From IMG/VR virus record IMGVR_UViG_3300009703_001822: a stretch of DNA of 64,000 bases; one strand, written 5' to 3'. This DNA is from a virus. This document shows, in pieces, positions 1,098-17,670 of the stretch (the stretch's first letter is position 1; each line of letters starts with the position of its first letter). A program made the position numbers and the translations under genes. Under the pieces are notes generated by a model. That model had not been told where the DNA came from and ran no database searches. It saw only the letters and a program-made list of their open reading frames with translations.

Positions 1098-3773
1098 TTA
1101 CTCCTTATATTGTGATAATATCATTTCTTGCATTTTTAAGTCTGATTTACCTGCCATCATATACATGCTATATTTGTTGTCGTCAATTTTGGCATTGGTA
1201 TATAATGCTTTTACTTGATACCAATCTGGTTGATCTGTTAATTGTTCCATTCCTGTATAAGCACTAAAACCTGCTTTGTAACCTATTACAGCAACAGCTA
1301 TTGTTTGGTTAGGTGTTTCTCCATCTTCACCTTGTTCTAATTGTGCTTGTAAATTTTCCATTGCTGCCTCTTCACCTAGTCTTTCTGCTAGATTCTCTAC
1401 AGCTTTTGTTGTTCTTTGTTCTGATACTGTTGGAGGTGCTACATCAAACTTAGCAAAGTTAGGAACTTCATTACTTAGAAACTGTCCTATACTTTGTCCT
1501 GTACCAATAGCATCGTTAAATGTATTCTCAAACTCTGCACTACTCCCTCCAAAAGAGTCACCACCTGCCTCGAATGTAAACTCCGATTGTGCTACTTGTT
1601 GATCTTGTTGTTGTTCTGCTACTTCAAAAGCGCTAACTGCAGGACCACCAACATCTGTTTGTCCTACATCTATACTTACTTGTCCTGTTGCTTGTTCTTG
1701 TTGATCTAATTGGAAACTATCTCCTGATGTATCACTACTTACAAGAGTTCCTGTACTACCTTGACTACCACCGTTATATGTAACACCTGAAGAACCTGAA
1801 CTACTAGAGCCACTACCACTAGATACTTGCTGACTTACAACTGCTGCTGCCTCTTTACCTAGTTCGTTTCTTAGTTTAGCAATAACTCTACTAGCACGAG
1901 AAGGTTTTCTTTGTTCTGGTTCTGAAGCTTCTACTTCATCAGGTGTTATTTCATCTACTTCTCTATCTAACTCTATTTCTTCCTCTTCTATCATTTCCTC
2001 TTCTTCAAATAACTCCTCAGGCTCCTCATTAAGTAGTTCTTCTAATTCTTCTGTGTCTATTAGTTCCTCGAACGCTTCATCGTCGATTAGTTCTTCTAAT
2101 ACTTCTAAATTTATCTCTTCTTCAAATATCTCTTCCATTTCCTCAACAAACTCTTCTAAATCTTCTCGCTCATAGTCTTCTAATGCTTCTATAAAGTCTT
2201 CTTCACTAAACTCTTCTATAAACTCATCTACTGGCATCCATTCTTCTTCACGCATTATTTCTAATCCACCTTCTTCTTCAAGAATGAATATTTCTTCCAT
2301 TGCAAATATTTCTTCTTCCATCATATACTGTTCTTCTTCACGCATCATCTCTTCTAGATCATATTGTTCCATGTTAGCATCTAGTGCTACAAGAAATGCC
2401 TCTTCTGAACCTGGTTCTGAGAAATCTAAAAATCCACCTTCATCAAACTCTGGATCTGCTCCATACCACTCATCTACTTGCTCTTGTCCAAACTGTTCTA
2501 CATCTAGTGCGTACCAATCGGCATCTGAAAAGTTCTCACAAGCGTTTTGATAACAAGGATCATTAGGATCTAAGTATTCATCATATTCTGCATCATACCA
2601 CATATCGTCTTGACTCCATGTGTCTCCGTTATCATCATAACCATACATGGCGTCTTCGTCTTGTCCATATTCGTCGAATCCATCATCATAACCATACATA
2701 TCTCCTTGGCTATCTGTGTTCATCATATCTTCTAATGATTCTTGATATGCTAACTCCTCAAAGTAACCATCACATTGTCTATCATACAAAGGATCTCGTT
2801 GACACTCTAATAAGAAAGTAGCTGCTGCGTATCCTGTACAGTTCTCACTATACAATGGATCTAAGCCACATTGTTGAGTTTCATAAGCTGCTGCGTATCC
2901 TGTACATTGATTATTGTATAAAGGATCAAGTCCACATTGTTGCGTAAAGTATGCATCTGCATAACCCGAACACTCTGTACTATACAAAGGATCTGCTGCA
3001 CAATGTTGAGCTAGTGTAAGGCCTTCACTATACAATGAACCTCCGTTTTCTATATCAGGTCCACCATAGCCTGCTAGGAATAGATCTAAGTTACCATAAT
3101 CTTGTCCATCATTATAGAATAGATATGTTTTCTTTTCACTACTAGAACCTTGCTCACCTATTAATACATCGTGATTACTAATATCTAGTTCTCTATATCT
3201 AAATTCGTATGTATCGTTGTGATATAATATAGCCTCGAAACTATTACTAGAACTTCTATTATATTCTTTCATGTAATACCAACCAAAGACTACATAGTCA
3301 TCAAAGGCTTTAAATAACATTTTAGATGTACACCAGGTATTATTACAATGAGAACCACTTTTGTTTGACTGACCTCTAATTAAATCTGTCCAGAAAGGAT
3401 ATAGTGTATAGTTTCTATATGGTAATGCTTGTGGTGTGTAGTCTTGGCAGTTAGCAGAATTTTTACCATCGCTTCTACCTGAGAAGTTTACACAACCGTT
3501 GGTAGACATTCTTGCTTGACTCCAATTATATCCCCAACGATCAAATGTAAATCCTAAGTTTACTTTGGCAGACATTGAATCATCATTTGAATTTAGATTT
3601 GTAGTGCCAGACATATTATATAAGTCTATAAGAGGTTGACTGCCTTCGTAGATATAATTATCTTCGTTAAAGCAGTTTTGGTTGTTGGTGCAATTAGTAT
3701 TAAAGCTATCTGCGAATACAGATGTGCTAAATAATAAACATAAACCTAGTATTAGCTGTTTAATTCTGCCCAT
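1098..3773 (-). CDS. large secreted acidic protein with NIDO-like domain and CxxDPLYxxxCxGY repeats
   Basis: Signal peptide; VNLGFTF...STNGCVNF...LYPFWTDL NIDO-like motif; four Cys repeats; very Glu/Asp-rich middle. Confidence 0.65.
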   Translation of the reverse strand: MGRIKQLILGLCLLFSTSVFADSFNTNCTNNQNCFNEDNYIYEGSQPLIDLYNMSGTTNLNSNDDSMSAKVNLGFTFDRWGYNWSQARMSTNGCVNFSGRSDGKNSANCQDYTPQALPYRNYTLYPFWTDLIRGQSNKSGSHCNNTWCTSKMLFKAFDDYVVFGWYYMKEYNRSSSNSFEAILYHNDTYEFRYRELDISNHDVLIGEQGSSSEKKTYLFYNDGQDYGNLDLFLAGYGGPDIENGGSLYSEGLTLAQHCAADPLYSTECSGYADAYFTQQCGLDPLYNNQCTGYAAAYETQQCGLDPLYSENCTGYAAATFLLECQRDPLYDRQCDGYFEELAYQESLEDMMNTDSQGDMYGYDDGFDEYGQDEDAMYGYDDNGDTWSQDDMWYDAEYDEYLDPNDPCYQNACENFSDADWYALDVEQFGQEQVDEWYGADPEFDEGGFLDFSEPGSEEAFLVALDANMEQYDLEEMMREEEQYMMEEEIFAMEEIFILEEEGGLEIMREEEWMPVDEFIEEFSEEDFIEALEDYEREDLEEFVEEMEEIFEEEINLEVLEELIDDEAFEELIDTEELEELLNEEPEELFEEEEMIEEEEIELDREVDEITPDEVEASEPEQRKPSRASRVIAKLRNELGKEAAAVVSQQVSSGSGSSSSGSSGVTYNGGSQGSTGTLVSSDTSGDSFQLDQQEQATGQVSIDVGQTDVGGPAVSAFEVAEQQQDQQVAQSEFTFEAGGDSFGGSSAEFENTFNDAIGTGQSIGQFLSNEVPNFAKFDVAPPTVSEQRTTKAVENLAERLGEEAAMENLQAQLEQGEDGETPNQTIAVAVIGYKAGFSAYTGMEQLTDQPDWYQVKALYTNAKIDDNKYSMYMMAGKSDLKMQEMILSQYKE
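2760..3010 (-). repeat. 4 tandem CxxDPLYxxxCxGY peptide repeats (22-aa period)
   Basis: CAADPLYSTECSGY / CGLDPLYNNQCTGY / CGLDPLYSENCTGY / CQRDPLYDRQCDGY. DNA repeat gctgctgcgtatcctgtaca occurs twice. Confidence 0.85.
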
Positions 3774-5017
3774 TCGTTCCTACAAGTCCTACCTGATTTG
3801 TGTACGCCTTTATGTTTGCCGTCTAAGTGCTTTGTCTTTTTACAGGCTTTGATAAAAGCGTCTATTTCATTTTGTTTAGCTCTCTCAACTTCCCTTTCTT
3901 CTGCTACTATAAGGGCTTGTCGATTTTCCATTTTCTTTTTGTAGTCATCGTAGTCTGGTCTTTCCTGTGAATGTGCGTCCCACTCTAGAGCTGCCTCTTG
4001 TCCAATTTTACCTTCGAACGGACAAGGTGTTCCTGCCATTTCCATCGCTGCAAATACTCTAGCATCTTGACACATTAAGGATACAGCTGCTACTTTCATT
4101 CCCATATCATATACAGTTTTAGAAAGTTTAATCCTTTCACAGTTTTCATCTCTAACAGACTTACCAGCTGCTACACCAAATAATTGTGTTTGTACTGCTC
4201 CACTAACACCTGTGGTACATAGATCTTGTGAGAAACTTGCTCCAATACTAGGTGCTATGGCACTAGGAGGAGGGCTTTTAATCTCTTGTTTAATAGTTTG
4301 ATCTGTCTTGTTAATATTTTCATTTCTATTATTGTTCTCATTCTTGTTCGTGTTATTTGTTGTAACATTAGAATCACTTGTACTTTCGTTCTTATTAACA
4401 TTCGTGTTATTAGATGTTGAATTATTATTGTTATTATTAGTGTTCGTATTATTAGAATTACTATTAACAGTTTGATTAACAGTTGAATTATTTGTGTTCG
4501 TATTATTAGCAGTACTATTTACCGTGCTATTATTGGTATTCGTGTTGTTGTTAGTATTCGTTGAATTACCAGTATAATTCGTGGTGTTGTTATTCGTATT
4601 ATTATTGGTATTGGTTGAAGTACCTGTGTAATTCGTGGTGTTATTGTTATTATTAGTATTCGTTGAAGTACCTGTGTAAACCGTGGTGTTGTTATTGGTG
4701 TTCGTATTGTTGTTCGTATTCGTATTCGTCGCTGTAGAAGTGTTCGTGTTCACATTCGTATTTGCGTTGGTGTTCGTATTCGTTGAAGTGTTGGTGTTCG
4801 TCGAAGTGTTCGTATTCGTGTTCGTGTTCGTGTTGGTATTCGTGTTCGTGTTCGTATTCGTTCCTGTGGTTGTAGTCGTGGTACTTACAGATTCACAAAA
4901 CTCTGTGCCTTGTGTACAGTTACCTGTTTGATCTGCATGTGCAGGAGTCGATAAGCCTAAAGCTCCAAACATAACAAATAGAGCCATATATTTTTTGTTC
5001 ATTGATGTTTTCCTCAA
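3752..5017 (-). CDS. secreted Asn/Thr-rich protein with Cys-containing C-terminal domain
   Basis: Signal peptide (AHA|D), about 190-aa (NT)n low-complexity tract, C-terminal PPPSAIAPS..DLC..NCERIKL..MCQD..GTPCP domain. Confidence 0.75.
   Translation of the reverse strand: MRKTSMNKKYMALFVMFGALGLSTPAHADQTGNCTQGTEFCESVSTTTTTTGTNTNTNTNTNTNTNTNTNTSTNTNTSTNTNTNANTNVNTNTSTATNTNTNNNTNTNNNTTVYTGTSTNTNNNNNTTNYTGTSTNTNNNTNNNTTNYTGNSTNTNNNTNTNNSTVNSTANNTNTNNSTVNQTVNSNSNNTNTNNNNNNSTSNNTNVNKNESTSDSNVTTNNTNKNENNNRNENINKTDQTIKQEIKSPPPSAIAPSIGASFSQDLCTTGVSGAVQTQLFGVAAGKSVRDENCERIKLSKTVYDMGMKVAAVSLMCQDARVFAAMEMAGTPCPFEGKIGQEAALEWDAHSQERPDYDDYKKKMENRQALIVAEEREVERAKQNEIDAFIKACKKTKHLDGKHKGVHKSGRTCRNEWAELNS
4300..4880 (-). 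repeat. coding hexamer microsatellite-like tract encoding (Asn-Thr)n
   Basis: gtgttc/gtattc units repeated on the + strand. Confidence 0.85.
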
Positions 5018-5075
5018 ATAAATGTCAACTCAAACAAAAAATAATTTAATCATAACCTCGGTTAGTGTTCCTACT

Positions 5076-5083
5076 TATTTATA
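5076..5083 (-). promoter_or_regulatory. T4-type late promoter TATAAATA driving the secreted-protein operon
   Basis: TATTTATA on + strand, upstream of the 5017 start. Confidence 0.65.
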
Positions 5084-5180
5084 AGATCTGGTCCTTCATT
5101 ATACCAGATAGTTATACAATATACACCTAGGTATTATAAATCACTATGTGATGGATATTAAGGGCTACTCTATAAGCGCT

Positions 5181-5188
5181 TATAAATA
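5181..5188 (+). promoter_or_regulatory. T4-type late promoter TATAAATA driving the desaturase/radical SAM operon
   Basis: Exact consensus 23 nt before the 5212 start; overlaps palindrome TATAAGCGCTTATA (5171-5184). Confidence 0.7.
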
Positions 5189-5211
5189 TCAGATATAGTA
5201 GGAACAGATGA

Positions 5212-5517
5212 GTGAAAGCGAGATTAGCATTGACCTTCTTTCTTATGGTGGTATTTTTCTGGAGTTGGCCGGTTCGCCTCTTCACTAAAAAGAACAACTG
5301 CTATTTTTGGACATTAGAAAACTTAATTACAAAAGGCGGTCGTGCTAAGTGGTATCCAAGCAAAAGATGGGCTGGGTATCATGTTATTTGGATATCCCCT
5401 GAGGGAGAAGCATACGAGTACACAATTCCCCGTATGAGGAGGGACACACCTTGGTATAAAATGCTGTTTTATGATGGTTCTGTTCGTAAATTTAGAACAA
5501 CTAGAAAAGATCAATGA
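5212..5517 (+). CDS. small membrane-anchored hypothetical protein
   Basis: GTG start with AGGA SD, N-terminal hydrophobic segment, ATGA overlap with the next gene. Confidence 0.6.
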   Translation: MKARLALTFFLMVVFFWSWPVRLFTKKNNCYFWTLENLITKGGRAKWYPSKRWAGYHVIWISPEGEAYEYTIPRMRRDTPWYKMLFYDGSVRKFRTTRKDQ

Positions 5518-6254
5518 GACAAGCGGTATTAAAACAAAATAAGTCCTGGGCGCCCATCACATTACTGGCAGGACAGCTTATTGCCCAGGCAACCGCACTA
5601 CTTTCCTTATTCTTATATAATTGGACACCGGCAACCATTGCCATATCCTTATTTGTTTATTGTAGTATCATGTTAGGTATTACAATGGGTTATCATAGAT
5701 ATTACTCTCACAAACAATTTGAGTGTCCTAAGTGGATTGAATACTATCTATTATTCTTTGCACACATAGCAATGTTTGGACCTGCAATAACATGGGTAGC
5801 CAATCATAGAGAACATCACAAGTATGCAGACACATCTAAAGACCCTCATAGTCCTCATTATAGAGGCTGGTTAATGGCATACGCAGGTCAAGTACTTATA
5901 GATATAGATTTTAAACTTGTTAGAGACTTACTAAAACAAAAGTTACACAGAAACCAAGTTAAATATTATTGGCATGTTATATTAATATATGCAGCTGTAT
6001 TATTTAGCATAAGTCCAGAAGCATTACTATATGCTTGGTTAATACCAGCAGGATTTGCTAAACTTATAGGTTCTTTAGTGTTTACTTTCTCACATAGAGG
6101 CAAGAAAGCTAATAGTGATACATGGGTAGGGCTTATAACATTAGGTGAAGGGTTCCACGATTTACATCATAAGAATGTCAGAGTAGTATTGTGGCATCCT
6201 TTAGATTTAGGTGGACAGCTTATTAGAATGATAGATCGGAATGTTAAAATATAA
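5514..6254 (+). CDS. membrane fatty-acid (delta-9-like) desaturase
   Basis: Three His boxes (GYHRYYSH, HREHH, GEGFHDLHH), DPHSP motif and TM helices. Confidence 0.9.
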   Translation: MRQAVLKQNKSWAPITLLAGQLIAQATALLSLFLYNWTPATIAISLFVYCSIMLGITMGYHRYYSHKQFECPKWIEYYLLFFAHIAMFGPAITWVANHREHHKYADTSKDPHSPHYRGWLMAYAGQVLIDIDFKLVRDLLKQKLHRNQVKYYWHVILIYAAVLFSISPEALLYAWLIPAGFAKLIGSLVFTFSHRGKKANSDTWVGLITLGEGFHDLHHKNVRVVLWHPLDLGGQLIRMIDRNVKI

Positions 6255-6912
6255 TAAAAGGCACTATCCAGCAATAGCAGAAATAGATATAGACTTAGAT
6301 TACACATTAATCGAAGACTACTTATGGGAAAACTATGATAGGTGGCAAAACAACTTTGAAGCGCATAAAGGGCTTGCTGTGGCTTCTAATAATATTGCTA
6401 GCGATACTTACAAGGCAGTCCAACACTTTCATCTAACAGAATGTAGAAAAGAAGAACAGTTAGATGAGGCAGAACAATATTCTACAAAAGACAAACTTCG
6501 TAGAAACATACCCTTTACAATGGACGAACATAATTGGGACGAACCTGTAGACTTTTACAAAAATTCTAAACTACAATCACATTTAAACTCTGCCTTTCAG
6601 GATAAACTAATACGAGTTAGATATTCTCGTATGTTTCCAGGAGGTGTAGTTCCTAAGCATATTGACTACAATACAACTTATGCCATGAGATTTATTATTC
6701 CTATATCAGGCAACAAAGGTGTTACAAATACCTTTTGGTATAATGGAGAAGAAATAAAGGTTGAAATGAAGGAGAAAAGATGTTATTTTCTTAATATAGG
6801 TTATCCGCATATGGTAGAACATAATGGTATGGGGATACGACATTATTTAATGGGGAGCGTTGCAGGACAACGAGATTTTGAATGTATAAGATATATAACA
6901 GAAAAGAATTAG
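6241..6912 (+). CDS. 2OG-Fe(II) oxygenase, Asp/Asn beta-hydroxylase-like
   Basis: RVRYSRMFPGGVVPKHID...RFIIPI...YFLNIGYPHMVEH..R.YL (HxD...H DSBH). Confidence 0.75.
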   Translation: MLKYNKRHYPAIAEIDIDLDYTLIEDYLWENYDRWQNNFEAHKGLAVASNNIASDTYKAVQHFHLTECRKEEQLDEAEQYSTKDKLRRNIPFTMDEHNWDEPVDFYKNSKLQSHLNSAFQDKLIRVRYSRMFPGGVVPKHIDYNTTYAMRFIIPISGNKGVTNTFWYNGEEIKVEMKEKRCYFLNIGYPHMVEHNGMGIRHYLMGSVAGQRDFECIRYITEKN

Positions 6913-7466
6913 AATCAAGAGGCATTCTAGGCGTCATAGATATAATTATTAATCAGGCACACGAAGAAGGCAACGGCGAGGCCTTTAAAAATAAATATCA
7001 TCCTTATAGATCTCCTGGAGAAACATTTGTGGCACTATGGGAAGGCAGACCTGCAGGTATGATATCAGCAGAACCTTCAACTTATACAAACGATCCAGAC
7101 ATAGCAATACGAGCATGTCGTTTACATGTACTAAAACCTTATAGAACAAAACAAATAGGATTCCATTTATACGATCATTGTTATCATTATGCAAAAGACA
7201 ATGGTTACAAAGTATGTTATATAACACACGATGTTAAAGGTAGAGCAATGAATGCTATATATCAACATCAAAAGAAGTCTTTGTTCGCAGGAAGTAGTAA
7301 AGACCCTTACGAATTGGAATCATGGAAAAATTTAGAATGGAATCAGGAGTATCTATTTCAAGTAGATCTTAAAGCAGAATTCTATCAAAACATTTATCAA
7401 ACAATATTAGAAGAAGGATATCATTGGATACCAACATCTAATGTAATACCTAAAGATGAAATTTAA
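6882..7466 (+). CDS. GNAT-family acetyltransferase
   Basis: RLHVLKPYRTKQIGFHL acetyl-CoA motif A. Confidence 0.75.
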   Translation: MYKIYNRKELESRGILGVIDIIINQAHEEGNGEAFKNKYHPYRSPGETFVALWEGRPAGMISAEPSTYTNDPDIAIRACRLHVLKPYRTKQIGFHLYDHCYHYAKDNGYKVCYITHDVKGRAMNAIYQHQKKSLFAGSSKDPYELESWKNLEWNQEYLFQVDLKAEFYQNIYQTILEEGYHWIPTSNVIPKDEI

Positions 7467-8064
7467 CGAAGAACAATTAATAGACTGGACACAGGGTATT
7501 AGAGAACACCCTGATATGTTAAATGCTTTTTGGCCTAGTCAGATTAAATCTAAAATATGGTTATCTGATTGGGTAAAAAGTTATTTGCCTAGTGCAAAGA
7601 AAATAATTATATTTGGCTCTTGGTATGGTGTGTTAGCAGATATATTAACACTACGATTAAAAGATACTAATATATTATGTAATGATATAGACAAAGAAGC
7701 AATATCCTGGTGTATGCGAAAGTATCACACCGATACAACTAGAATGGAAGAATTTGTCTACGAAACCCGTGTTGATCTTGTAATAAATACTGTAACAGAA
7801 CATTTAACACAGGAACTATATGATAAGTGGTATGAGAAGATTCCAAAAGGAACATACTTCGTCATACAAGGCAACAATGATTTTAAAGAACAAGATCATG
7901 TTAGAGCTTTTAATAATTTAGATGAATTTAATAAATTGAATAAAGTAGAAAATACATTACACACAGGAACCATTTCTTATGAAGGTCCTTGGGATATGGT
8001 AGATAACAAGCCCACTTATTATGAGAGGTATATGACAATAGGGTTTAAGAGTGAATACAACTAA
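7456..8064 (+). CDS. class I SAM-dependent methyltransferase-like protein
   Basis: IIIFGSWYG motif I, CNDID acidic motif II, DLVINT..EH. Confidence 0.7.
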   Translation: MKFNEEQLIDWTQGIREHPDMLNAFWPSQIKSKIWLSDWVKSYLPSAKKIIIFGSWYGVLADILTLRLKDTNILCNDIDKEAISWCMRKYHTDTTRMEEFVYETRVDLVINTVTEHLTQELYDKWYEKIPKGTYFVIQGNNDFKEQDHVRAFNNLDEFNKLNKVENTLHTGTISYEGPWDMVDNKPTYYERYMTIGFKSEYN

Positions 8065-9430
8065 TGAAGATAGAATAAAAGTATTAGAGCTAAAGAGAGA
8101 CAAAATTAATACAATTAGTCCTAGCTTTTGTTCTGCTAAATGGTTACAAACATCATTATATTTACAAAATGGTTTCAATCATTCCTGTCACCATCCGTCA
8201 GCACATAAAATACCTATAGAAGAAATTAAGGCAAACCCTGCTGCACTACACAATTCTAAATATAAAAAACAACAAAGAGCTAAAATGTTAAACGGCGAAA
8301 GGCCGTCTGAATGTGATTATTGTTGGAAAATAGAAGACTTAGATAAAAATTATTTTTCGGATAGGCATTACAAGACAGCAGATTGGTGGGCTTGGGATAG
8401 AGTAGACGAGATAGCAAAAAGTAGTCCTGCCGACGATGTGTTTCCTAGTTATTTAGAAGTTTCATTTTCTAATGCTTGTAACTTTGCTTGTGCTTATTGT
8501 AGTCCAGATATATCCTCTACATGGATGGATGATATAGAAGAACATGGCAGTTATCCTGTACAAAACGGAAATCACGATTTAGAATATTTAAAAAGTGTAG
8601 GAAAGATACCATACAAAAGAAGTGAGGAAAATCCATATATGGATGCTTGGTTTAAATGGATGCCAGAAGTATTACCTCATTTAAAAGTATTTAGAGTTAC
8701 AGGTGGTGAACCTACAATGTCTAAAGATGTGTGGAGAACATTAGATTATATAATGGAAAACCCACAACCTCAATTGCAGTTAGCAATTAACACTAATTTA
8801 GGAACACATACAAAACTTATAGACAAATTAATAGACTATATAAACAAATTAGAAGACAAAGTAGAACGAATAGATGTTTATACAAGTGTTGAGTCTGTAG
8901 GACAAGATGCTAATTATGTAAGAGACGGATTAGATTATGACTATTGGTATATGAATGTCAAGCATGTTTTAGCAAGAACAAATAGTTTAGTAGCAATAAT
9001 GACTACACTTAATATGCTAAGTTTACCTACATTTAATAATTTTATAGATGATATAATGGATTTAAGAATACTATTTAATAAAGGATTAGAAAACAATAGA
9101 ATACCTATAAGCTTAAATTATTTAAGATGGCCTCCTCATTTACAAGCAACATTATTAGATAAAGAAACAAGAGTAGACTATGTAAATAAAATATTGCCTC
9201 ATGGAGAGCAATGGTTGAAGTATTACAGCCCAGATAAATATGCTAGACTGTATTTAGAAGAATGGGATCAGTTAAAGCGCTGGTGTGACTACTTAGTCAC
9301 GGAACCAACGCAAGATAAATTTAGAAAAGATTTTGTAAATTATATAAAAGCGTATGATGTTAGAAGAGATAAAGACTTCACATCTACCTTTCCTGATTTT
9401 GCAAATTTGTTAGAGGATTGGAATGTCTGA
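8051..9430 (+). CDS. N-terminal twitch/SPASM-domain radical SAM protein (1)
   Basis: CNFACAYC, TGGEP; N-terminal C..SCHH..CDYC auxiliary cluster motif. Confidence 0.92.
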   Translation: MNTTNEDRIKVLELKRDKINTISPSFCSAKWLQTSLYLQNGFNHSCHHPSAHKIPIEEIKANPAALHNSKYKKQQRAKMLNGERPSECDYCWKIEDLDKNYFSDRHYKTADWWAWDRVDEIAKSSPADDVFPSYLEVSFSNACNFACAYCSPDISSTWMDDIEEHGSYPVQNGNHDLEYLKSVGKIPYKRSEENPYMDAWFKWMPEVLPHLKVFRVTGGEPTMSKDVWRTLDYIMENPQPQLQLAINTNLGTHTKLIDKLIDYINKLEDKVERIDVYTSVESVGQDANYVRDGLDYDYWYMNVKHVLARTNSLVAIMTTLNMLSLPTFNNFIDDIMDLRILFNKGLENNRIPISLNYLRWPPHLQATLLDKETRVDYVNKILPHGEQWLKYYSPDKYARLYLEEWDQLKRWCDYLVTEPTQDKFRKDFVNYIKAYDVRRDKDFTSTFPDFANLLEDWNV

Positions 9431-10940
9431 AGATGTAGAAAAGTTAGTTAAGTATAGACAGGAAGTACTAGACACAAAGTCTACGAGTTTTTGTGGTGCT
9501 AAGTGGTACAACGCTACAACCTGGTTAGGTAGTGGAACAACTGCATCATGTCATCACCCACCTGCACACAAAATTCCTTTAGTAGAGTTAGAAGGAAATC
9601 CTTCTGCTATACACAATACAAACCACAAAAAAGCAATGCGTAAAATGATGCAACAAGGCGATCGTCCTCGAGAATGTGAATATTGTTGGAAAATAGAAGA
9701 CATACCAGGAGATACAAGGGTTTCAGACAGAGTATTTAAATCTAACATTTACACAAACGAACAATTAGAAGCTGCACACAAGGCAGACTACAACGACAAC
9801 ACAATGTTAAAAACATTTGAAATTGCATTTGATAGAGTATGTAATTTAGCATGTAGTTATTGTAATGCAAGTTTCTCTACAACATGGGCTAAAGACATTA
9901 AAAAAGACGGACCCTATCAAAATCTTATTAGTGATGGTGCAGCTGCTTTTCAACAAGATGGTAGTTGGACAGAACCATTTGGTAGAGATGCTGTAACAGC
10001 AGAAACAAATCCCTACATTAAAGCATTCTGGGAATGGTGGGACGAAGGTTTGGCAGACAATTTAGAAGAACTAAGAGTAACAGGTGGTGAACCTCTTATG
10101 TCAGGAGAGACATGGAAACTGTTTGATAAAATAAAAGCTCGCCCTGAAATGAGACTAGCAATAAACAGTAATCTAATATGTAAAGATAAAATTATGGACA
10201 ACTTAATTAAAAAGAGTCAAGACATTAAGAAGTTCCATGTTTATACAAGCGCCGAGTGTTATGGAGAACATCAAGAGTATATAAGAGATAATTTTATATG
10301 GAAAACCTGGGATAAAAATATGAGACGTCTTATTACAGAAGGCAATTACGAAGGACTTCATATAATGATGACTATTAACAGTCTTTGCTTATTTACAATA
10401 ACAGAATTCTTAGATCATGTTTATACATTCAAAGAAATAAAAGGCATAAAGTCGCCTACAGTTACACTTAATCTATTGCGTTTTCCTAGTTTCCAAAGCC
10501 CACTATCATTACCAGATAATATTAAAATACATGTAAGAAAGAAACTAATGGATTGGTATGCCAAACAAGATGATAGAAAACTTTGGACAGGTATTGAAAG
10601 AGCTAATATAGAAAGACTAATAGATTACTTAGACCATGTTGACGCTCCTCATAGAAGAACAAGTTCTAAACCAGCATTGTGGAGGGACTTCAAATCTTTT
10701 TATGAACAATATGATATAAGACGAGATAAAGACATAAGAATATTTCCTGAGATACTTACAGACTGGTTAGATGGTTTACCACCTACATTACAAGTACATG
10801 CAGGACTAACAGATGGAGACAGTACAAAAAATAATGTTGGAGAAGAGGATCTTATAAAAATTGCTAAAGAAGAAGGTTGGATACTAGAACCTGACAATAG
10901 TAATATAGATAAACCTTTGGGGGATTATGATAAAGACTGA
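9423..10940 (+). CDS. N-terminal twitch/SPASM-domain radical SAM protein (2)
   Basis: CNLACSYC, TGGEP; FCGAKW..SCHH..CEYCW. Confidence 0.92.
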   Translation: MSEDVEKLVKYRQEVLDTKSTSFCGAKWYNATTWLGSGTTASCHHPPAHKIPLVELEGNPSAIHNTNHKKAMRKMMQQGDRPRECEYCWKIEDIPGDTRVSDRVFKSNIYTNEQLEAAHKADYNDNTMLKTFEIAFDRVCNLACSYCNASFSTTWAKDIKKDGPYQNLISDGAAAFQQDGSWTEPFGRDAVTAETNPYIKAFWEWWDEGLADNLEELRVTGGEPLMSGETWKLFDKIKARPEMRLAINSNLICKDKIMDNLIKKSQDIKKFHVYTSAECYGEHQEYIRDNFIWKTWDKNMRRLITEGNYEGLHIMMTINSLCLFTITEFLDHVYTFKEIKGIKSPTVTLNLLRFPSFQSPLSLPDNIKIHVRKKLMDWYAKQDDRKLWTGIERANIERLIDYLDHVDAPHRRTSSKPALWRDFKSFYEQYDIRRDKDIRIFPEILTDWLDGLPPTLQVHAGLTDGDSTKNNVGEEDLIKIAKEEGWILEPDNSNIDKPLGDYDKD

Positions 10941-12105
10941 ACAAGATACAAAAGACTATATCAAACAAAATAATGTGTTTGAATTTAGAAACAATTTTAG
11001 TTGGATGACTTTATTAGATGGTATTACACATGCTTTACCTAATGCACATGCCAGAGTAAAGAAATATAAACTACAAGATGCCATAGAAGAAAGAAATGCT
11101 GTAGACGCTTTGATATATGATGTAATATATGTATTCAATGAAGATGGCATACGACAACCTTTAGACAATCCTAATGCATCTGAGGTGGCAATATTTTTTG
11201 GAGACTCTATTGCTTTTGGAGAAGGAAATTATACAGACGCAACAATACCTACACTATTTCAATTAGAAAACTCTAAGTATCAATGCTTTAACTATGGATT
11301 TATGGCACACGCAGCTAGTCATATGTTAGTAAGAGTTATGTCAGAGTCTTTTACAAAGAAGTTTGAATACACAGGAGGCAGAGTATTTTATTTGTACAGA
11401 GATGATACAATTAAGATTACAACAGGCAATGTTCCTTGGAGAGAGTATTCTCCCATAATAACTTATGATACAGACAATGTAAAACCTGCAGGGTTTTGGA
11501 AAGACGAAGATATAGATGAGCCATTACCTTCTCAATATGAAGAGGAAGATTACAAATTAACAGCAGACACATTTAAAGAAATACAGAAACAACTTTACAA
11601 AATAAATCCTTATTTAGAATTACATATTGTTTTCTTGCCATTAACATTTACAACGGAAAAAATGAAAACAATGATAGGAGACATAAAATATACAGACTTA
11701 TCTTTGTTTGACATGTCCCATAGAACTAATCAATATGATTTGTTTTTAGATGGCAGTTTTACAATGCCTGCTAATAAAATTATAGCAGATAACTTAAAAA
11801 GCGAGAACAAATACAATATAGAACACGAAGATTTTCTTTCAGACTTAGAGTTTATAGGTTATATGTTACCTGCACACAATGAATTTCCTTATGATGATGC
11901 TGGAGTATTATTAGCACAACTTATAAGACGATATGGCACAGAAGGAGATTTCATGGTGGATCTTAAAAGTTTGTGGGAAAAGAAATTATTATTACTAGAA
12001 CATATTACTTCTGATACAACAAAAGAACAACTCAAAGAACTTTGTGAACCTATGAGAAGAAATAAAAATTTGTTAGATATATTCTATCAGGAGTATATAC
12101 AATGA
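10927..12105 (+). CDS. SGNH/GDSL hydrolase-fold protein
   Basis: IFFGDSIAFGEG block I and FNYG block II. Confidence 0.55.
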   Translation: MIKTEQDTKDYIKQNNVFEFRNNFSWMTLLDGITHALPNAHARVKKYKLQDAIEERNAVDALIYDVIYVFNEDGIRQPLDNPNASEVAIFFGDSIAFGEGNYTDATIPTLFQLENSKYQCFNYGFMAHAASHMLVRVMSESFTKKFEYTGGRVFYLYRDDTIKITTGNVPWREYSPIITYDTDNVKPAGFWKDEDIDEPLPSQYEEEDYKLTADTFKEIQKQLYKINPYLELHIVFLPLTFTTEKMKTMIGDIKYTDLSLFDMSHRTNQYDLFLDGSFTMPANKIIADNLKSENKYNIEHEDFLSDLEFIGYMLPAHNEFPYDDAGVLLAQLIRRYGTEGDFMVDLKSLWEKKLLLLEHITSDTTKEQLKELCEPMRRNKNLLDIFYQEYIQ

Positions 12106-13406
12106 CAAAGCATCTTTGTACTGCTCCTTGGACACATACTTATGTTAGCCCACAAGGCGAGCGTAGATTATGTTGTGCAAGCAGAGAAGAGGCAAAGTTT
12201 ACAAAACAATACCTAGACTCTGGTGGGGGCAGTACAGATTTTAATCCTGAATCTTTGGAGGAACATTGGAACAGTGATTATATGAAAGACATACGAAAGC
12301 GTATGTTAGCAGGAGAAGCTATACCTCAATGTGTTGTATGTAATGATAATGTTTTAAACTTACATACCTATAGAGAGTATTTTACTAAAACATTATTCCC
12401 TCATAAAGTATTAGACATAATTAACAATACAAGAGAAGACGGGCATTATGATGAAATGCCAGTTTCATATGATTATCGTTTATCTAACTTATGTAATTTT
12501 AAATGTAGAATGTGTGGCGATCAACTATCCTCGTCTTGGGAGGCAGAAAATAGAATACATGCTGTTGATGTAACAGATGCATGGTTAGAGCCTACTACAA
12601 GAGGACAAATTTTTAATTTCCAAAAAGAAGTATTAGAGGAAGAACTACAAGATGCTGTAGACAAAGGATTAATAGAAGAAATATATTGGGTAGGTGGAGA
12701 GCCTTTAATGTGGGAAAGACATTGGACTATTATGAACCAACTTGTTTCTACAGGACAATCTAAAGATATAATAATACGATACAATACAAATTTAAGCAAA
12801 ACAAGTTACCCTAACAAATTTGGCAAAAGATATCAACTATATGATATGTTGGGAGAGTTTAAAAGAATTAATTTGTGTGCTAGTATAGACGCAACAGGAG
12901 ATGTTGGAGAGTATATAAGAACAGGATTAAAGTGGGACGAATGGTTACAAAATTTTAAAGAAGGTTTATTTTTAAATGAACTTTATGGTGATGATGGTAT
13001 GGTATTAGATGTAACTCTTACAACGCCCGGTTTATTTCATTTAAGAGATATGTTTGATTTAGCAACAGAACTAGATTGTAAAACATATTTTAAATTTACA
13101 TACGCATTTGATCCGTCTAAAATAATGGCACCTACTGCACTACCTAAGAATATTACTATACCTGTTTGTAAAGAACTTATAGCATATATGGAACCTAGAA
13201 AGACATGGAAAACACAAGTTTATATAGACTCATTAAAGAACTTAATGGAAAGATCTAGTTTTGATGAAGAGTGGCCTGAACATTATAAATTTGGTTTGAT
13301 GAAAGGTAAACAACATATAGAAAGATTAGAAAGTATAAGAGAACAAAAAGTTAGATTTAGAGATACACTAAATGCTGATGCGAGGTTGTGGTACGATGAC
13401 ATCTAA
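12102..13406 (+). CDS. N-terminal twitch/SPASM-domain radical SAM protein (3)
   Basis: CNFKCRMC, VGGEP; LCTAPW..LCC..CVVC. Confidence 0.92.
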   Translation: MTKHLCTAPWTHTYVSPQGERRLCCASREEAKFTKQYLDSGGGSTDFNPESLEEHWNSDYMKDIRKRMLAGEAIPQCVVCNDNVLNLHTYREYFTKTLFPHKVLDIINNTREDGHYDEMPVSYDYRLSNLCNFKCRMCGDQLSSSWEAENRIHAVDVTDAWLEPTTRGQIFNFQKEVLEEELQDAVDKGLIEEIYWVGGEPLMWERHWTIMNQLVSTGQSKDIIIRYNTNLSKTSYPNKFGKRYQLYDMLGEFKRINLCASIDATGDVGEYIRTGLKWDEWLQNFKEGLFLNELYGDDGMVLDVTLTTPGLFHLRDMFDLATELDCKTYFKFTYAFDPSKIMAPTALPKNITIPVCKELIAYMEPRKTWKTQVYIDSLKNLMERSSFDEEWPEHYKFGLMKGKQHIERLESIREQKVRFRDTLNADARLWYDDI

Positions 13407-14598
13407 AACATTTTGCCCGTTGCCGTGGAAACATTTAGCAACACACCCTCATGGAAGATTAAGTTTGTGTTGTGAAGCCGATACCACAATGAAAACAGCA
13501 TTTACAACTGATTTTGGTTTCAATAGAACTCTACAAAATACACAATATAATTATGACACTATAATGAATAGTTCGTCTTTTCGTAATGTAAGATTACAGA
13601 TGTTAAATGGAGAGTATCCACAAGAATGTAAAAGATGTTGGAACTCAGAATCGGTAGGAAACAAAAGCAAAAGAATAATAGAATTAGAAAGACATAACTT
13701 TACAGAAGAACAAGCAATACAATGTACAGATATAACAGATGGTAGAATAAAAGATATAAGTTTTGAATTTATAGAATTAAGATTAGGTAACCATTGTAAT
13801 TTAATTTGTAGAACATGTAATCCTATTTCTAGTACTCGTTGGAGAAAAGAGTGGCAAAAATTAGGTTTGGAGGCAGGATACAATGCAATACCACAACAAG
13901 AAATGGATTGGCCTTTAGATCAAGATTTTTGGGATAGTCTACTTTCACATGTAAATGAATTAAGATTTTTATATATTAATGGTGGCGAGCCTTTACTTAT
14001 AGACAAGCATGGTAAGTTTTTAAAAGAACTAATTAATTTAGATATAGCAAAAAATGTTACTATTGTTTATTCTACAAACTCAACGGTATCGGGTGAGGAT
14101 TATGAGGATATCTGGAAAGAATTTTATAAAGTAGAAACAATGTTATCTATAGACGATATAGAAGGTAGAAATGAATATATGAGATACCCTTCGAAGTGGG
14201 ACAATACAATAAAACAATATGAATGGTTTAAAGAGTTAGGTGAAAGACATGATAACATTAATACAACAATATGTCAGACAGTTTCTATATTGAACATATA
14301 TTATCTAAGTGAATTCTACGAATACTTTAATGGTACACAAATATCCTGCAACTTTGTTACTAATCCTATGTATTACGATCCTGCAATATTACCACAGGAC
14401 ATAAAAGATACAATTATTAATAAATACAAAGGGGAAGTATTCTACGATACCATAAAAAATTATTTAGGTATAGAAAACAAAGGTAGAACATTACTTCAAT
14501 TTTTTGATGTTACTAACAGACAAGATGTATTAAGGAAAGAATCTTATAAAGAAACATTTTCTGAATTTTATGATTTGATAAAAGAATATGACAGATAA
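13396..14598 (+). CDS. N-terminal twitch/SPASM-domain radical SAM protein (4)
   Basis: CNLICRTC, NGGEP; FCPLPW..LCC..CKRCW. Start reassigned to ATG 13396 (MTSKTFC), downstream of GAGG. Confidence 0.92.
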   Translation: MTSKTFCPLPWKHLATHPHGRLSLCCEADTTMKTAFTTDFGFNRTLQNTQYNYDTIMNSSSFRNVRLQMLNGEYPQECKRCWNSESVGNKSKRIIELERHNFTEEQAIQCTDITDGRIKDISFEFIELRLGNHCNLICRTCNPISSTRWRKEWQKLGLEAGYNAIPQQEMDWPLDQDFWDSLLSHVNELRFLYINGGEPLLIDKHGKFLKELINLDIAKNVTIVYSTNSTVSGEDYEDIWKEFYKVETMLSIDDIEGRNEYMRYPSKWDNTIKQYEWFKELGERHDNINTTICQTVSILNIYYLSEFYEYFNGTQISCNFVTNPMYYDPAILPQDIKDTIINKYKGEVFYDTIKNYLGIENKGRTLLQFFDVTNRQDVLRKESYKETFSEFYDLIKEYDR

Positions 14599-15961
14599 TT
14601 TAACACAAGACGAAATAGATATTGGCATACGAGCTGAAGATAAAGGTGGCGATGAAAATATACCTTTACTTGATACAACTAAGTGTGCATTACCTTTAAT
14701 ACATTTACATACTTGGCCCAACAAAAATGTTTTTGCTTGTTGTTTGGGTGGTTACGATACTAAAATAGGTTCCTTAGAAGAAGGTACACTACAAGAAATA
14801 TTTAACAACGATATGATGAAAGACATACGAAAGAAAATGTTAAATAACGAAAGACCAAGAGAATGTACTAACTGTTTTAAGGAAGAAGATACCGGAGGAT
14901 TTTCATTTAGAAAAACTGCTAATAGAGATTTCAAACATCATTTAGATAAATGGGACGATGTTAAGGAAGACGGCACACTAGAGAAAATGGACTTAGCATA
15001 TTGGGACTTTCGTTTTTCAAATGTATGTAGTTTTTCTTGTCGTAGCTGTGGTCCTCAGTTAAGTTCGGGTTGGTATAAAGATACTAAAAAGATGTATGGT
15101 AGTTTGAATTTTGAAGACAACTTTAATCTTATAAAAGAAAGAACAATAGAAGTATGGGATCAACTAGAACCTCACTTCGATACAGTAGAAAGAATATACT
15201 TTGCAGGTGGTGAACCTTTAATGATGGAGGAGCATTATAGAATACTAAAAAGATTAATAAAGATGGAAAGAAGCGAGGTTGTGTTAATATATAATACAAA
15301 CTTAAGCACATTAAATCTTAAGAAGGATAGTGTATTAGATTTGTGGCCACAGTTTGACCGTGTTGTTATAGAAGCAAGTTTAGATGGTAGTGGTGAGAGA
15401 GGAGAGTTTGTTCGTAAAGGTTTAGTGTGGGATGAATGGAAGGAAAATAGAAAACAAATTGAAAAGGCATGTCCTAATATAGAGTTTAATATTAACTATA
15501 CAATAAGCATACAAAATGTTTTACATGTAAGAGAATGTATGGAAGAATTAATAGACATAAAAGCAATTAATAGTCCTCACAATTTTAGATTTAATCTAGT
15601 ACACCACCCTGTATGGTTAAATGTTATTATGTTGCCAGATCATATGAAACAAACAATAAAAGATTATATGGAAGAATGGAAATTGGATATAAACAAAGAC
15701 TATCCTAGATTAGCTAGAGGCTCTATAACAGCGGCTATAAATTCTTTCTTAGAGTATATGTTTTCTGAGAAAGGAAATCCTAAAATGATACAACTATTCT
15801 GTAGACAAATGGAGATGATAGATTCTGTAAGAGATGAATGTTGGCAAGAAGCAATACCAGAAATGGCTTGCTTAGATCCTTTATGGAAAGGGGTAAGAAA
15901 AGAATTAAATACATTAGCATTAAGATATGAAACCGGGAGATTATTAGGCTATGAAAAATAA
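14588..15961 (+). CDS. N-terminal twitch/SPASM-domain radical SAM protein (5)
   Basis: CSFSCRSC, AGGEP; KCALP..ACC..CTNCF. Confidence 0.92.
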   Translation: MTDNLTQDEIDIGIRAEDKGGDENIPLLDTTKCALPLIHLHTWPNKNVFACCLGGYDTKIGSLEEGTLQEIFNNDMMKDIRKKMLNNERPRECTNCFKEEDTGGFSFRKTANRDFKHHLDKWDDVKEDGTLEKMDLAYWDFRFSNVCSFSCRSCGPQLSSGWYKDTKKMYGSLNFEDNFNLIKERTIEVWDQLEPHFDTVERIYFAGGEPLMMEEHYRILKRLIKMERSEVVLIYNTNLSTLNLKKDSVLDLWPQFDRVVIEASLDGSGERGEFVRKGLVWDEWKENRKQIEKACPNIEFNINYTISIQNVLHVRECMEELIDIKAINSPHNFRFNLVHHPVWLNVIMLPDHMKQTIKDYMEEWKLDINKDYPRLARGSITAAINSFLEYMFSEKGNPKMIQLFCRQMEMIDSVRDECWQEAIPEMACLDPLWKGVRKELNTLALRYETGRLLGYEK

Positions 15962-16478
15962 AGCATTATTATGTGGTGGACACTCTAAATTTGGAAAAGT
16001 GTTTGCCGAACTATTAGAAGAACATTACGACTTAACTAACTTAAACAGGCAACAAATAAATTCGCCTGATATATTAGATGATTTAGACGACGATTATGAT
16101 TTTATTTTCTTTAATCATAACAGGGGCACAGGAGGATTTGAAGATCTAAATGAAAGTATAAAAATTAATTGTATGTTGCCTTACAGAATTGTTAAGAAAC
16201 AAAAACAATTAAGAAAGGTTGGTTGGATGATTACAGGCGATTGCCATTTAAATATGGGTTATCCTACAAATCACTATTCATTAGATGAGTCCTTTCAATG
16301 TTATGTAGTTATCAAATCTATACACATGGCACAACAAAGATATTTTTCTCAACAATATAATACCTTTGTATGTGATCCTGGTATGTTAAATGATGAAAAC
16401 CATCTTAGTAAAGCAGAAGAGTTATTAGGATTTTCTTTATCAGATGACGAGTCCGATTTGATATACATGAACCGATGA
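15951..16478 (+). CDS. divergent short-chain dehydrogenase/Rossmann-fold protein
   Basis: ALLCGGHSKFGK glycine motif, YxxxK (YVVIK), DPG. Confidence 0.55.
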   Translation: MKNKALLCGGHSKFGKVFAELLEEHYDLTNLNRQQINSPDILDDLDDDYDFIFFNHNRGTGGFEDLNESIKINCMLPYRIVKKQKQLRKVGWMITGDCHLNMGYPTNHYSLDESFQCYVVIKSIHMAQQRYFSQQYNTFVCDPGMLNDENHLSKAEELLGFSLSDDESDLIYMNR

Positions 16479-17050
16479 AACAAATAGATCCAGATCACCC
16501 TATATGGGAAGTTGATTTTTCTTTGCCAGATATAGAATGGCAACAGAAGGATGACTATGTTCAAGAAGGTCTGGAGATGACAAATTTAAGGCATGAACTA
16601 TTTTGTCCTGTACAGGAAGATTATTTGAAATGGTTGGATGCTTGGAAAACACAATTATTTCAAGTTATAAAACCTTTTAGAAAAGAGGAAACTACACCAC
16701 CTGTTGCAGTTAAGATGTGGAAAAGATATTTACAAACAATACACTTTCCAGGTGGTTTTGAAAAATACTTAAATATACTATTAGATAAACCTGGTTTTAT
16801 TATGAATCCACATGAGGATAATAGATATGTTGTAGGTATATTACTTGTTAATTTACAAGACAATCCTACAGGAACATACTTTACAAGCATAGATTACAAG
16901 CTTCCTGGAACTAAAGGAAAGGGTGTATTTTTCTTAAATCATAGTAATACAATGCACGGTATTGAACAAAAAGGACCAGGAGATAGAATAATAGCATACC
17001 AACATATATCAATCGGCCACTTAAAAGATATAAATAAAACTGATGGCTAA
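16475..17050 (+). CDS. 2OG-Fe(II) oxygenase-like protein
   Basis: DKPGFIMNPHED...GTYF...HGI...R (HxD...H..R). Confidence 0.65.
   Translation: MKQIDPDHPIWEVDFSLPDIEWQQKDDYVQEGLEMTNLRHELFCPVQEDYLKWLDAWKTQLFQVIKPFRKEETTPPVAVKMWKRYLQTIHFPGGFEKYLNILLDKPGFIMNPHEDNRYVVGILLVNLQDNPTGTYFTSIDYKLPGTKGKGVFFLNHSNTMHGIEQKGPGDRIIAYQHISIGHLKDINKTDG
17029..17036 (+). promoter_or_regulatory. T4-type late promoter, 6 nt before ATG 17043
   Basis: TATAAATA consensus. Confidence 0.6.
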
Positions 17051-17333
17051 GGTAATACAATTTCCTAAGAAGGAACCAAAGCCCAAACTTATAAAGGGCT
17101 ATAGGATGTCCTTCTATACAGAGGACGAAATAGATCTAGCGCTTTTATGTATCAATACATATGGCTGGAATCGTATCGGCTATACTAGAAACAATCTTAG
17201 CAAAGTAGATCCTTTGTACATAAAAGATTGTTTAATACGAGGCTATAATTCAGATTTGTTTTCTTATCCAGCAAGGAAGCTTATAAATAAAATTATAGAC
17301 GGAATGGAAACTATTGAGGTTAAGGCTAACTAA
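17043..17333 (+). CDS. hypothetical protein
   Basis: 96-aa ORF with the MAKVIQFP N-terminus typical of small phage proteins. Confidence 0.65.
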   Translation: MAKVIQFPKKEPKPKLIKGYRMSFYTEDEIDLALLCINTYGWNRIGYTRNNLSKVDPLYIKDCLIRGYNSDLFSYPARKLINKIIDGMETIEVKAN

Positions 17334-17334
17334 T

Positions 17335-17670
17335 ATGCCAATATACACATTTGAAAATACAGAAACTGAAGAACAGTTTGATATGATGATGGCCATAGCA
17401 GATAAAGAAAAGTGGCTGGAAAAGAATCCCCACATGAAACAAATTATTACTGCACCAAACTTAAATTTTGGTGGTGTGGGAGATCGTACGAAACCAGATA
17501 AAGGTTTCCAAGATGTTTTATCAAGAGTAGCAGACGCTAATCCTTATTCACCAATGGCAGATGACTTTGGTAGAAAGGATGCAAAGTCTGTTAAAATTAG
17601 AGACACAGTTAAAAAAGTTAAAAAACGAGTCGGTAATTTGATGAGTGAATCAAAACCGGACAATGTATAA
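17335..17670 (+). CDS. FmdB-like regulatory protein
   Basis: MPIYTFENTETEEQF...LEKNPH...KPDKGFQDVL; lies directly before phoH as in T4-like marine phages. Start reassigned to 17335. Confidence 0.7.
   Translation: MPIYTFENTETEEQFDMMMAIADKEKWLEKNPHMKQIITAPNLNFGGVGDRTKPDKGFQDVLSRVADANPYSPMADDFGRKDAKSVKIRDTVKKVKKRVGNLMSESKPDNV

Follow-up and report, generated by a model that had tools for sequence, protein, structure and literature searches.

What does a marine phage make with five radical S-adenosylmethionine (SAM) enzymes that are encoded almost side by side? The question is raised by a 64,000-nucleotide (nt) stretch of viral DNA from IMG/VR record IMGVR_UViG_3300009703_001822 (hereafter the window), in which 13 genes (A–M) on the plus strand fill positions 5212–17050 (~12 kb) and include five genes for N-twitch radical SAM proteins (F, G, I, J and K). 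The block is an operon-like tailoring cassette that, to judge from its sequence, is probably transcribed late. We tentatively favor the reading that the five enzymes edit a sugar or glycoconjugate and that the product is placed on a surface-exposed target late in infection. This reading is drawn from gene context and is held with somewhat less than even confidence. By its gene content, the phage that carries the cassette is an uncultured marine T4-like myovirus whose nearest cultured relatives are pelagimyophages; its gp6 homolog shares 35% identity with the counterparts in Pelagibacter phage HTVC008M and in Methylophilales phage Melnitz.

Five N-twitch radical SAM enzymes in an overlapping gene block

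Genes F (8051–9430), G (9423–10940), I (12102–13406), J (13372–14598, with a possible start at 13396) and K (14588–15961), all on the plus strand, encode proteins that match the NCBIfam family NF033640 (N_Twi_rSAM, twitch domain-containing radical SAM protein) over their full lengths. The match scores of 323.8, 292.7, 312.4, 331.4 and 374.2 bits, respectively, lie well above the curated cutoff of 170 bits. The pairwise identity among the five paralogs is 22–36%. F and G are 36% identical and share a C-x2-KW...SCHH subtype, I belongs to a C-x2-PW...CC subtype, and K is closest to the bacterial single-copy members. Four N-terminal cysteines (C27, C46, C88 and C91 in F numbering), the CxxxCxxC motif (C143, C147 and C150), the GGEP motif (G218–P221) and five basic residues (K53, R76, R105, R291 and R439) are invariant in all five. 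The order of these elements, a four-Cys twitch domain followed by a CxxxCxxC core with GGEP, is also that of NF033640. In three of the five enzymes, Pfam places a SPASM-type domain N-terminal to the radical SAM domain (residues 6–96), and the match covers residues 6–81 in I and 15–90 in J. Each enzyme would be expected to bind a SAM-cleaving [4Fe-4S] cluster via the CxxxCxxC motif, and a second, fully Cys-ligated [4Fe-4S] cluster is predicted in the N-terminal twitch domain.

The five enzymes are resolved into separate clades in a tree built from 324 members of the family. The F clade contains 80 leaves (support 0.93; 64 viral loci), the G clade 32 leaves (0.995; 25 viral loci), the I clade 21 leaves (0.58; 16 viral loci) and the J clade 55 leaves (0.62; 29 viral loci). 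The K clade, with 120 leaves (0.77), draws on 25 viral and 73 bacterial loci, and K has 4851 database relatives at E ≤ 1e-10. Orthologs are 47–87% identical, compared with 22–36% between paralogs. The five enzymes therefore represent old specialized paralogs rather than a recent amplification. The placement by hidden Markov model (HMM) and phylogeny agrees with a preliminary description of the window, made from the sequence alone, that had recognized five divergent radical SAM paralogs with CxxxCxxC, GGEP and N-terminal four-Cys motifs. The ratio of nonsynonymous to synonymous substitution rates (dN/dS), calculated against the closest relative (L001), is 0.07–0.26 overall and 0.07–0.11 for I, J and K, values by which the cassette is under purifying selection.

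The 13 open reading frames (ORFs) overlap at each junction by 4–35 nt, and the overlapping run extends past gene M through two small ORFs (17043–17333 and 17314–17670) up to position 17670. A TATAAATA box, the T4-type late-promoter consensus, is located at 5181–5188 on the plus strand, 24 nt 5' of the first ORF. No further TATAAATA box was found within 5189–17028 and no convincing plus-strand terminator inside the 13-gene block; the two trailing small ORFs have TATAAATA boxes of their own at 17029 and 17282. A second conserved box, TATAAATC, lies at 5134–5141, ~45 nt upstream of the TATAAATA box. Two related contigs, L002 and L003, contain a TATAAATA-type box at the equivalent position, together with the conserved TATAAATC box ~45 nt further upstream. 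The arrangement of 13 overlapping genes behind one box, as initially described, was thus borne out.

On the minus strand, a mirror TATAAATA at 5076 is oriented towards a divergent upstream gene that encodes an Asn/Thr-rich protein. In the whole window, 17 TATAAATA copies were observed against 12.3 expected, a mild over-representation that is not unusual as a total. Ten of the 17 copies touch intergenic DNA, which amounts to 4.6% of the window, and most of the boxes lie less than 80 nt 5' of a same-strand gene start, nearly always on the coding strand. Given this placement and the T4-like gene set of the phage (homologs of gp5, gp6, gp48, gp32 and gp59 type), it is reasonable to read the box as a late promoter. 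Co-transcription of the 13 genes would be expected from the layout, and the late timing that had been proposed for the block would be expected from the T4-type promoter motif alone.

Contigs from four metatranscriptome libraries of three studies match parts of the block; they carry no strand, end or timing information. Some of these contigs bridge the E/F junction with 0–1 mismatches, and a ~94%-identical relative in the RNA libraries bridges the F/G, G/H and I/J junctions. A very high RNA-library depth at 4568–5101 corresponds to a low-complexity repeat and was not used, nor were gaps in the RNA-library coverage of the block.

Gene context and the proposed editing of sugars or glycoconjugates

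A scan of viral contigs yielded 321 loci with family members, 80 of which were examined; together with L001, 81 loci were counted. The prevailing layout in the other viral loci consists of fibre-like proteins (companion families c5, c5 and c3), c4, c2, c2, c7, c1 and the radical SAM gene or genes, often followed by c1 and a homolog of gene E. The c1 family flanks the F-type enzyme in 62 of the 81 loci, and the Thr/Ser-rich fibre-like proteins c5 and c3 are present in 45–50 of them. None of the companion families c1–c7 has a Pfam match, and PDB sequence searches of c1 and c6 gave nothing usable. The AlphaFold2 (AF2) model of c1, with a predicted local distance difference test score (pLDDT) of 82.7, finds A64R, the transferase that glycosylates the capsid of Paramecium bursaria chlorella virus 1 (PBCV-1), as its top structural match (2p6w, E 1.5e-4), followed by many GT-A glycosyltransferases, at modest TM-scores of 0.28–0.40. 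The c6 family displays a TEK/fucosyltransferase-like signature at the level of the motif alone. A64R belongs to virus-encoded machinery that decorates a virion protein and, as the top match of c1, resembles an F partner found elsewhere. PBCV-1 capsid glycosylation differs in that it uses no radical SAM enzymes.

Two cultured phages hold parts of the system. The Ralstonia jumbo phage RsoM2USA contains the complete canonical module (record positions 215949–226089), all annotated as hypothetical, in the order epimerase (RsoM2USA_358), fibre-like protein (_355), c4, two c2 genes, c7, c1 (_350), F ortholog (_349), c1 (_348) and E-like protein (_347). RsoM2USA_349 is 42% identical to the gene F product over 462 amino acids (aa). 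The module adjoins ORF356, ORF359 and ORF361, whose products were identified in virions by mass spectrometry (PMC8504454). The cassette in the window shares F and E orthologs with this module, lacks its fibre and GT-A companions, adds desaturase, AspH-like and GNAT genes and abuts the gene for the Asn/Thr-rich secreted protein.

The Pelagibacter phage Mosig encodes homologs of B, C, D and E and of an epimerase in the window, and its GNAT and AspH-like genes are adjacent as well. The Mosig island (~54.7–73.2 kb) comprises two AspH-like genes, a GNAT gene, a desaturase gene, a TauD-like dioxygenase gene, nitroreductase genes, three MoaA-like (not N-twitch) radical SAM genes and genes for a DegT/ArnB-type sugar aminotransferase, a carbamoyltransferase, an E-like methyltransferase and an epimerase. 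Mosig indicates that the B–E module can occur in the absence of N-twitch enzymes, with sugar-nucleotide-like surroundings.

K-type members are found in 230 bacterial loci from many phyla, mostly as a single copy, in contrast to the phage operon here with its five paralogs of ancient divergence. Multi-copy loci with two or three N-twitch genes in Bacteroidota (L099, L106, L120, L121, L133, L136, L141 and L146) contain genes for an NAD sugar epimerase, a GT4 glycosyltransferase, a UbiA-like prenyltransferase and an ABC transporter, along with PhyH arrays and a WelO5-like oxygenase, and look like an uncharacterized biosynthetic cluster. As the Bacteroidota loci and the window are alike in this respect, the combination of radical SAM enzymes, several O2-dependent oxygenases and sugar genes is a recurring theme.

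Sugar genes are also found in the window itself, 3' of the block and beyond genes for PhoH and HD proteins. A nucleotide-sugar epimerase/dehydratase is encoded at 21971–22846 (plus strand) and a PF11397 (Skp1-type) GlcNAc-type glycosyltransferase at 23120–24109 (plus strand), just before gp59 and gp32; the two lie 5–7 kb downstream of the block, with a 99-aa plus-strand ORF between them within 21971–24109. Homologs of the epimerase are located near N-twitch genes in nine viral and seven bacterial loci, in addition to RsoM2USA and Mosig. The epimerase and the glycosyltransferase may be linked to the operon.

The sugar reading is founded on three of these contexts: the flanking of F-type enzymes by GT-A-like c1 and fibre-like proteins, the sugar island of Mosig, and the downstream epimerase and glycosyltransferase. 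The preliminary description had left the choice between peptide or protein modification and sugar chemistry undecided, and the family-wide context favors a sugar or glycoconjugate over a peptide. The sugar-acting enzymes BtrN, BlsE, DesII and AprD4 share the radical SAM core and an auxiliary cluster with the window enzymes, and the family context here likewise includes sugar epimerases and glycosyltransferases. The auxiliary domain is C-terminal in enzymes of the BtrN/BlsE type, in contrast to its N-terminal position in the window enzymes.

The remaining genes of the block, all on the plus strand, would supply additional chemistry. Gene A (5212–5517) encodes a 101-aa protein with a hydrophobic N-terminal segment, is 71–76% identical to its orthologs in L002 and L003 (dN/dS against L001, 0.10) and has no known family in Pfam, NCBIfam or PHROGs. 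Gene B (5514–6254) encodes a membrane fatty-acid-desaturase-family protein (PF00487, 52 bits against a gathering threshold of 29.7) with the His boxes HRYYSH, HREHH and HDLHH and 32.5% identity to Mosig_00080. The gene C product (6241–6912) is a candidate AspH-like cupin oxygenase (PF05118) that scores 22.3 bits, just below the cutoff of 22.6, and is 27% identical to Mosig_00072, annotated Asp_Arg_Hydrox (E 6e-22). Gene D (6882–7466) encodes a GNAT acyltransferase (PF00583, 35.7 bits) that is 34% identical to the N-acetyltransferase Mosig_00073, whose gene is likewise located beside an AspH-like gene. The desaturase and GNAT assignments made at the outset were confirmed by these matches.

The protein encoded by gene E (7456–8064) appears to adopt a class-I SAM-methyltransferase fold. 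A single-sequence search gave a weak NF045844 match, and a profile built from 19 family members matches the class-I methyltransferase 3dtn (E 3.8e-4) and also spermidine synthases; the methyltransferase call thus receives weak support at the family level. Gene E is the commonest partner of F-type N-twitch enzymes, with homologs near N-twitch genes in 22 viral loci, and further homologs are RsoM2USA_347 and Mosig_00090.

Gene H (10927–12105) encodes a 392-aa protein with an FFGDSIAFGEG motif (GDS block I) and Atlas values of 0.92–0.95 to SGNH/GDSL clusters; no family HMM match and no usable PDB sequence match were obtained, and the SGNH/GDSL hydrolase call is kept as a lead. Gene M (16475–17050; 191 aa) is a lead of the same kind for a 2-oxoglutarate (2OG)-Fe(II) oxygenase, with an Atlas value of 0.94 to viral PF13640 clusters and an HxD...H motif, no HMM match and nothing usable in a PDB sequence search. 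Pairwise BLAST detected no similarity of M to the other oxygenase-like genes. The proposal of two hydroxylases in the block hence stands weakly for C, by its Pfam score and Mosig homology, and as a lead for M. The short-chain dehydrogenase/reductase (SDR) proposed for gene L (15951–16478; dN/dS 0.21) amounts to a motif-level resemblance: the 175-aa protein is short for the family and displays only short motifs (a G-rich loop, NHNRG and a YxxxK-like motif), and no search in four libraries or the PDB supported the call (zero matches in Pfam, NCBIfam, PHROGs or the PDB). The dN/dS values of L and M against L001 are 0.21–0.26.

In the favored reading, the five N-twitch enzymes would perform stepwise, oxygen-independent radical editing (dehydrogenation, epimerization, deoxygenation or C–C/C–X chemistry) of a nucleotide- or lipid-linked sugar or of a glycan already on a protein. 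Further decorations could be introduced through methyl transfer by E, acyl transfer by D and ester chemistry by the SGNH-like H, and O2-dependent oxidation could be contributed by the desaturase-like B, the AspH-like C and the 2OG-oxygenase-like M. The product would be destined for a Ser/Thr/Asn-rich secreted or virion protein or for a host envelope glycan. The sugar substrate, the order of the steps and the target are inferred. Speculatively, the Ser/Thr-rich fibre-like neighbors in most phages and the Asn/Thr-rich neighbor here could both serve as typical O-glycosylation-type acceptors.

Several observations weigh against this reading. The companion families c1–c7 are absent from the window, and there is no glycosyltransferase inside the operon; the association with nucleotide-sugar and glycosyltransferase genes is strong for orthologs elsewhere, modest in bacteria and missing within this operon. 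The fold of the enzymes does not discriminate between substrates. The AF2 model of K (pLDDT 78) has a helical C-terminus, and its matches in Foldseek and VIA-align do not extend beyond the generic radical SAM core. The highest VIA-align score is that of BlsE (Z 12.7, root-mean-square deviation 3.4 over 211 residues), followed by EpeE (Z 12.1) and by PFL-AE, CteB, viperin, SkfB and anSME (Z 11–12), all within ~1.3 Z of BlsE, and enzymes that act on sugars, peptides, nucleotides and lipids tie at Z 10–12.7. A literature search by family name and accession found no publication devoted to NF033640 and no member with a tested reaction. The scan patterns used for bacteria were K-type, and the bacterial sample is consequently biased to the K clade. 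Among 148 non-redundant bacterial genes at most two positions from a member, six encode GT2 and two GT1/GT4 glycosyltransferases, four GDSL proteins, two GNAT proteins, one a DegT protein and five other radical SAM proteins, figures without a matched control that represent a modest glycosyltransferase enrichment. The RNA-library contigs give only a weak hint of transcription, since DNA may be present in RNA libraries. Finally, the block is mosaic, with B–E in Mosig, H, L and M variable and D and E diverged, from which a single 13-gene product does not follow.

Alternative substrates and products of the cassette

Maturation of a ribosomal protein or peptide, in which the radical SAM enzymes and oxygenases would introduce cross-links, epimerization or β-hydroxylation into the Asn/Thr-rich protein or a virion fibre, is unlikely, although a number of features speak for it. 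Characterized SPASM/twitch enzymes are often peptide modifiers, and the top fold matches include EpeE, CteB, SkfB, anSME and SuiB. PF05118 enzymes hydroxylate Asp or Asn residues in proteins, and the gene C product resembles AspH. In other phages, genes for Ser/Thr-rich fibre-like proteins lie next to the arrays. The maturases of peptides that are ribosomally synthesized and then post-translationally modified (anSME, SkfB, CteB, SuiB and EpeE) also resemble the window enzymes in their two-cluster architecture (Z 11–12) and in the presence of several tailoring genes per operon. Other hallmarks of such systems were not detected in the block. There is no precursor-peptide gene in the operon, in agreement with the initial description, and no room for one: all junctions overlap, and the sole intergenic candidate is a 26-codon ORF at 5208 that lacks conservation, being lost in L002. 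Pfam detected no domain for precursor recognition, although the helical C-terminus may include a divergent region for peptide binding. The SPASM-type auxiliary domain is N-terminal, a permuted order relative to known maturases, and the partner genes are transferase-like rather than protease or transporter genes. The GT-A-like partners of F-type enzymes point to sugars instead.

The Asn/Thr-rich protein, which had been named early on as a possible substrate, enters this argument on both sides. It is a 421-aa secreted protein encoded on the minus strand at 3752–5017, in which a Sec-type signal peptide is followed by TN-type low complexity over ~200 aa and then by a globular domain at the C-terminus, and it is the best local candidate acceptor. 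Among the substrates proposed at the outset, which also included a Tyr-Gly fibre and a VrlC insert, it is the one for which an association was seen. Its gene is the divergent neighbor of the cassette in L002 and L003 as well, and also in L004, which is more distant; these 3 of the 81 viral loci belong to one lineage, and no other locus has this neighbor. The C-terminal domain (phrog_20531) is 47–59% identical to hypothetical proteins of many Pelagibacter podophages and of Mosig and is common in pelagiphages without the cassette.

The possibility that the block is a mosaic of unrelated auxiliary genes on one transcript with no single product, for example with a desaturase for membrane fluidity, is less probable still. 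Genes B–E are separable from the N-twitch enzymes, as in Mosig, and close relatives differ in H, L and M: L002 and L003 have a sixth radical SAM gene in the H slot, a gene for a 907-aa protein replaces L and M in L002–L004, and orthologs of L and M were found only in L001. Relatives including L002 contain one or more extra genes between D and E. The D and E products are unusually diverged, being 41–49% identical between the window (6882–8064) and L002 (3947–5803), compared with 72–87% for flanking genes, which suggests a module exchange inside the operon. The H swap, the extra genes between D and E, the 907-aa replacement and the D/E divergence together indicate a modular cassette, and the variable regions of pelagimyophages gain and lose radical SAM cassettes (PMC7029224). 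The notion of a single indivisible pathway is not sustained by these data. A tailoring cassette is nonetheless real: every junction overlaps, B, C, D and E stay connected with the radical SAM genes in all three of L002, L003 and the distant L004, where the A/B-C-D-E-F-G...I-J-K layout recurs, and E is found alongside F-type enzymes in 22 loci as well as in RsoM2USA.

A further option, which we regard as improbable, is that the five enzymes and the oxygenases act directly on a hydroxyl- or amide-rich low-complexity protein, where they would install radical post-translational modifications or unusual sugar–protein linkages. At the same low level of confidence, this direct action would extend to the Asn/Thr-rich protein here and to the Ser/Thr-rich fibre-like proteins elsewhere. 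If true, it would represent a new phage-encoded way to mature an extracellular or virion fibre.

Marginally less credible again is lipid tailoring late in infection, directed at the host membrane, lipid A-type acyl chains or a polyprenyl-linked lipid. Two desaturase-family genes are present in the window (5514–6254 and 25725–26504), LpxO, which hydroxylates lipid A, is a member of the AspH family, and acyl chemistry is represented by the GNAT and SGNH-like proteins. GDGT-MAS is found among the fold matches and Tes among the weak HMM matches, and bacterial multi-copy loci contain UbiA-like and many PhyH genes. Against this, Mosig has desaturase and AspH genes but no N-twitch enzymes, F-type orthologs elsewhere lie between GT-A-like and fibre-like genes rather than lipid genes, and the matches to lipid enzymes do not exceed the others in the fold search. 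Least probable is a modification of nucleic acids or nucleotides (hypermodified phage DNA, tRNA or free nucleotides): phages use radical SAM enzymes in base hypermodification, the fold or HMM matches include viperin, MoaA, QueE, TYW1 and MiaB-type enzymes, and the E profile also matches aminopropyl-transferase folds of a kind used in wybutosine-type pathways, but the late-promoter box and the placement in tail-fibre regions elsewhere do not fit precursor supply, and Pfam and NCBIfam identified no DNA-binding, transglycosylase or kinase gene in the block.

Surroundings of the cassette and its distribution among phages

Upstream of the cassette, the gene for the Asn/Thr-rich protein is followed on the minus strand by a gene for an acidic secreted protein of 891 aa (1098–3773), which has Cys-containing 'DPLY..C.GY' repeats and a Glu/Asp-rich middle and for which family searches found no match. 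A 29%-identical homolog is located at the same place in L004, where the secreted pair flanks the cassette. An assignment of the upstream secreted proteins to the pelagimyophage 'curli operon' (PMC7029224) was dropped, as PDB searches of 663–1094 and 2–679 gave no CsgF/CsgG match.

Downstream, the second desaturase-family gene (25725–26504, plus strand) is followed by a gene for a PF13759 2OG-Fe(II) oxygenase, and the two form a second desaturase and oxygenase pair (25725–27277) besides B and C. A second island at 58874–63890 on the minus strand contains an E-like methyltransferase-fold gene (58874–59599), genes for two paralogous uncharacterized proteins (59529–61015), a ThyX gene (61012–61695) and a weakly GT8-like ORF. 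In other phages, homologs of several genes of this island lie close to N-twitch genes. A 495-aa ORF of the island (61889–63376, minus strand) was rejected as a sixth radical SAM gene; it displays BLAST similarity but has no CxxxCxxC triad and no family match.

Megablast found the block in no isolate phage, and tblastn of K returned distant matches only, while at least 14 marine metagenome studies contain near-identical DNA. A T4-like environmental genome carries 12 radical SAM genes with no function assigned (PMC5332604), and the variable regions of pelagimyophages contain radical SAM cassettes, likewise of unassigned function, together with glycosyltransferase genes and a core AspH gene (PMC7029224). 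These cassettes are found in the same phage group and in the same kind of variable island as the one in the window, which is a lineage-specific variant of a widespread uncharacterized phage system.

Members of the family number in the thousands among database proteins and are encoded on hundreds of phage contigs, where old paralogs often recur in fixed sets. With RsoM2USA, which holds the F/E/GT-A/fibre module, and Mosig, which holds the B–E module, two cultured systems have been identified in which the question of the substrate is testable. Should oxygen-independent radical editing of sugars or surface proteins prove true, it would constitute new enzymology and a new layer in the decoration of the phage surface or host envelope, and it would bear on the host range of abundant ocean phages and on superinfection.

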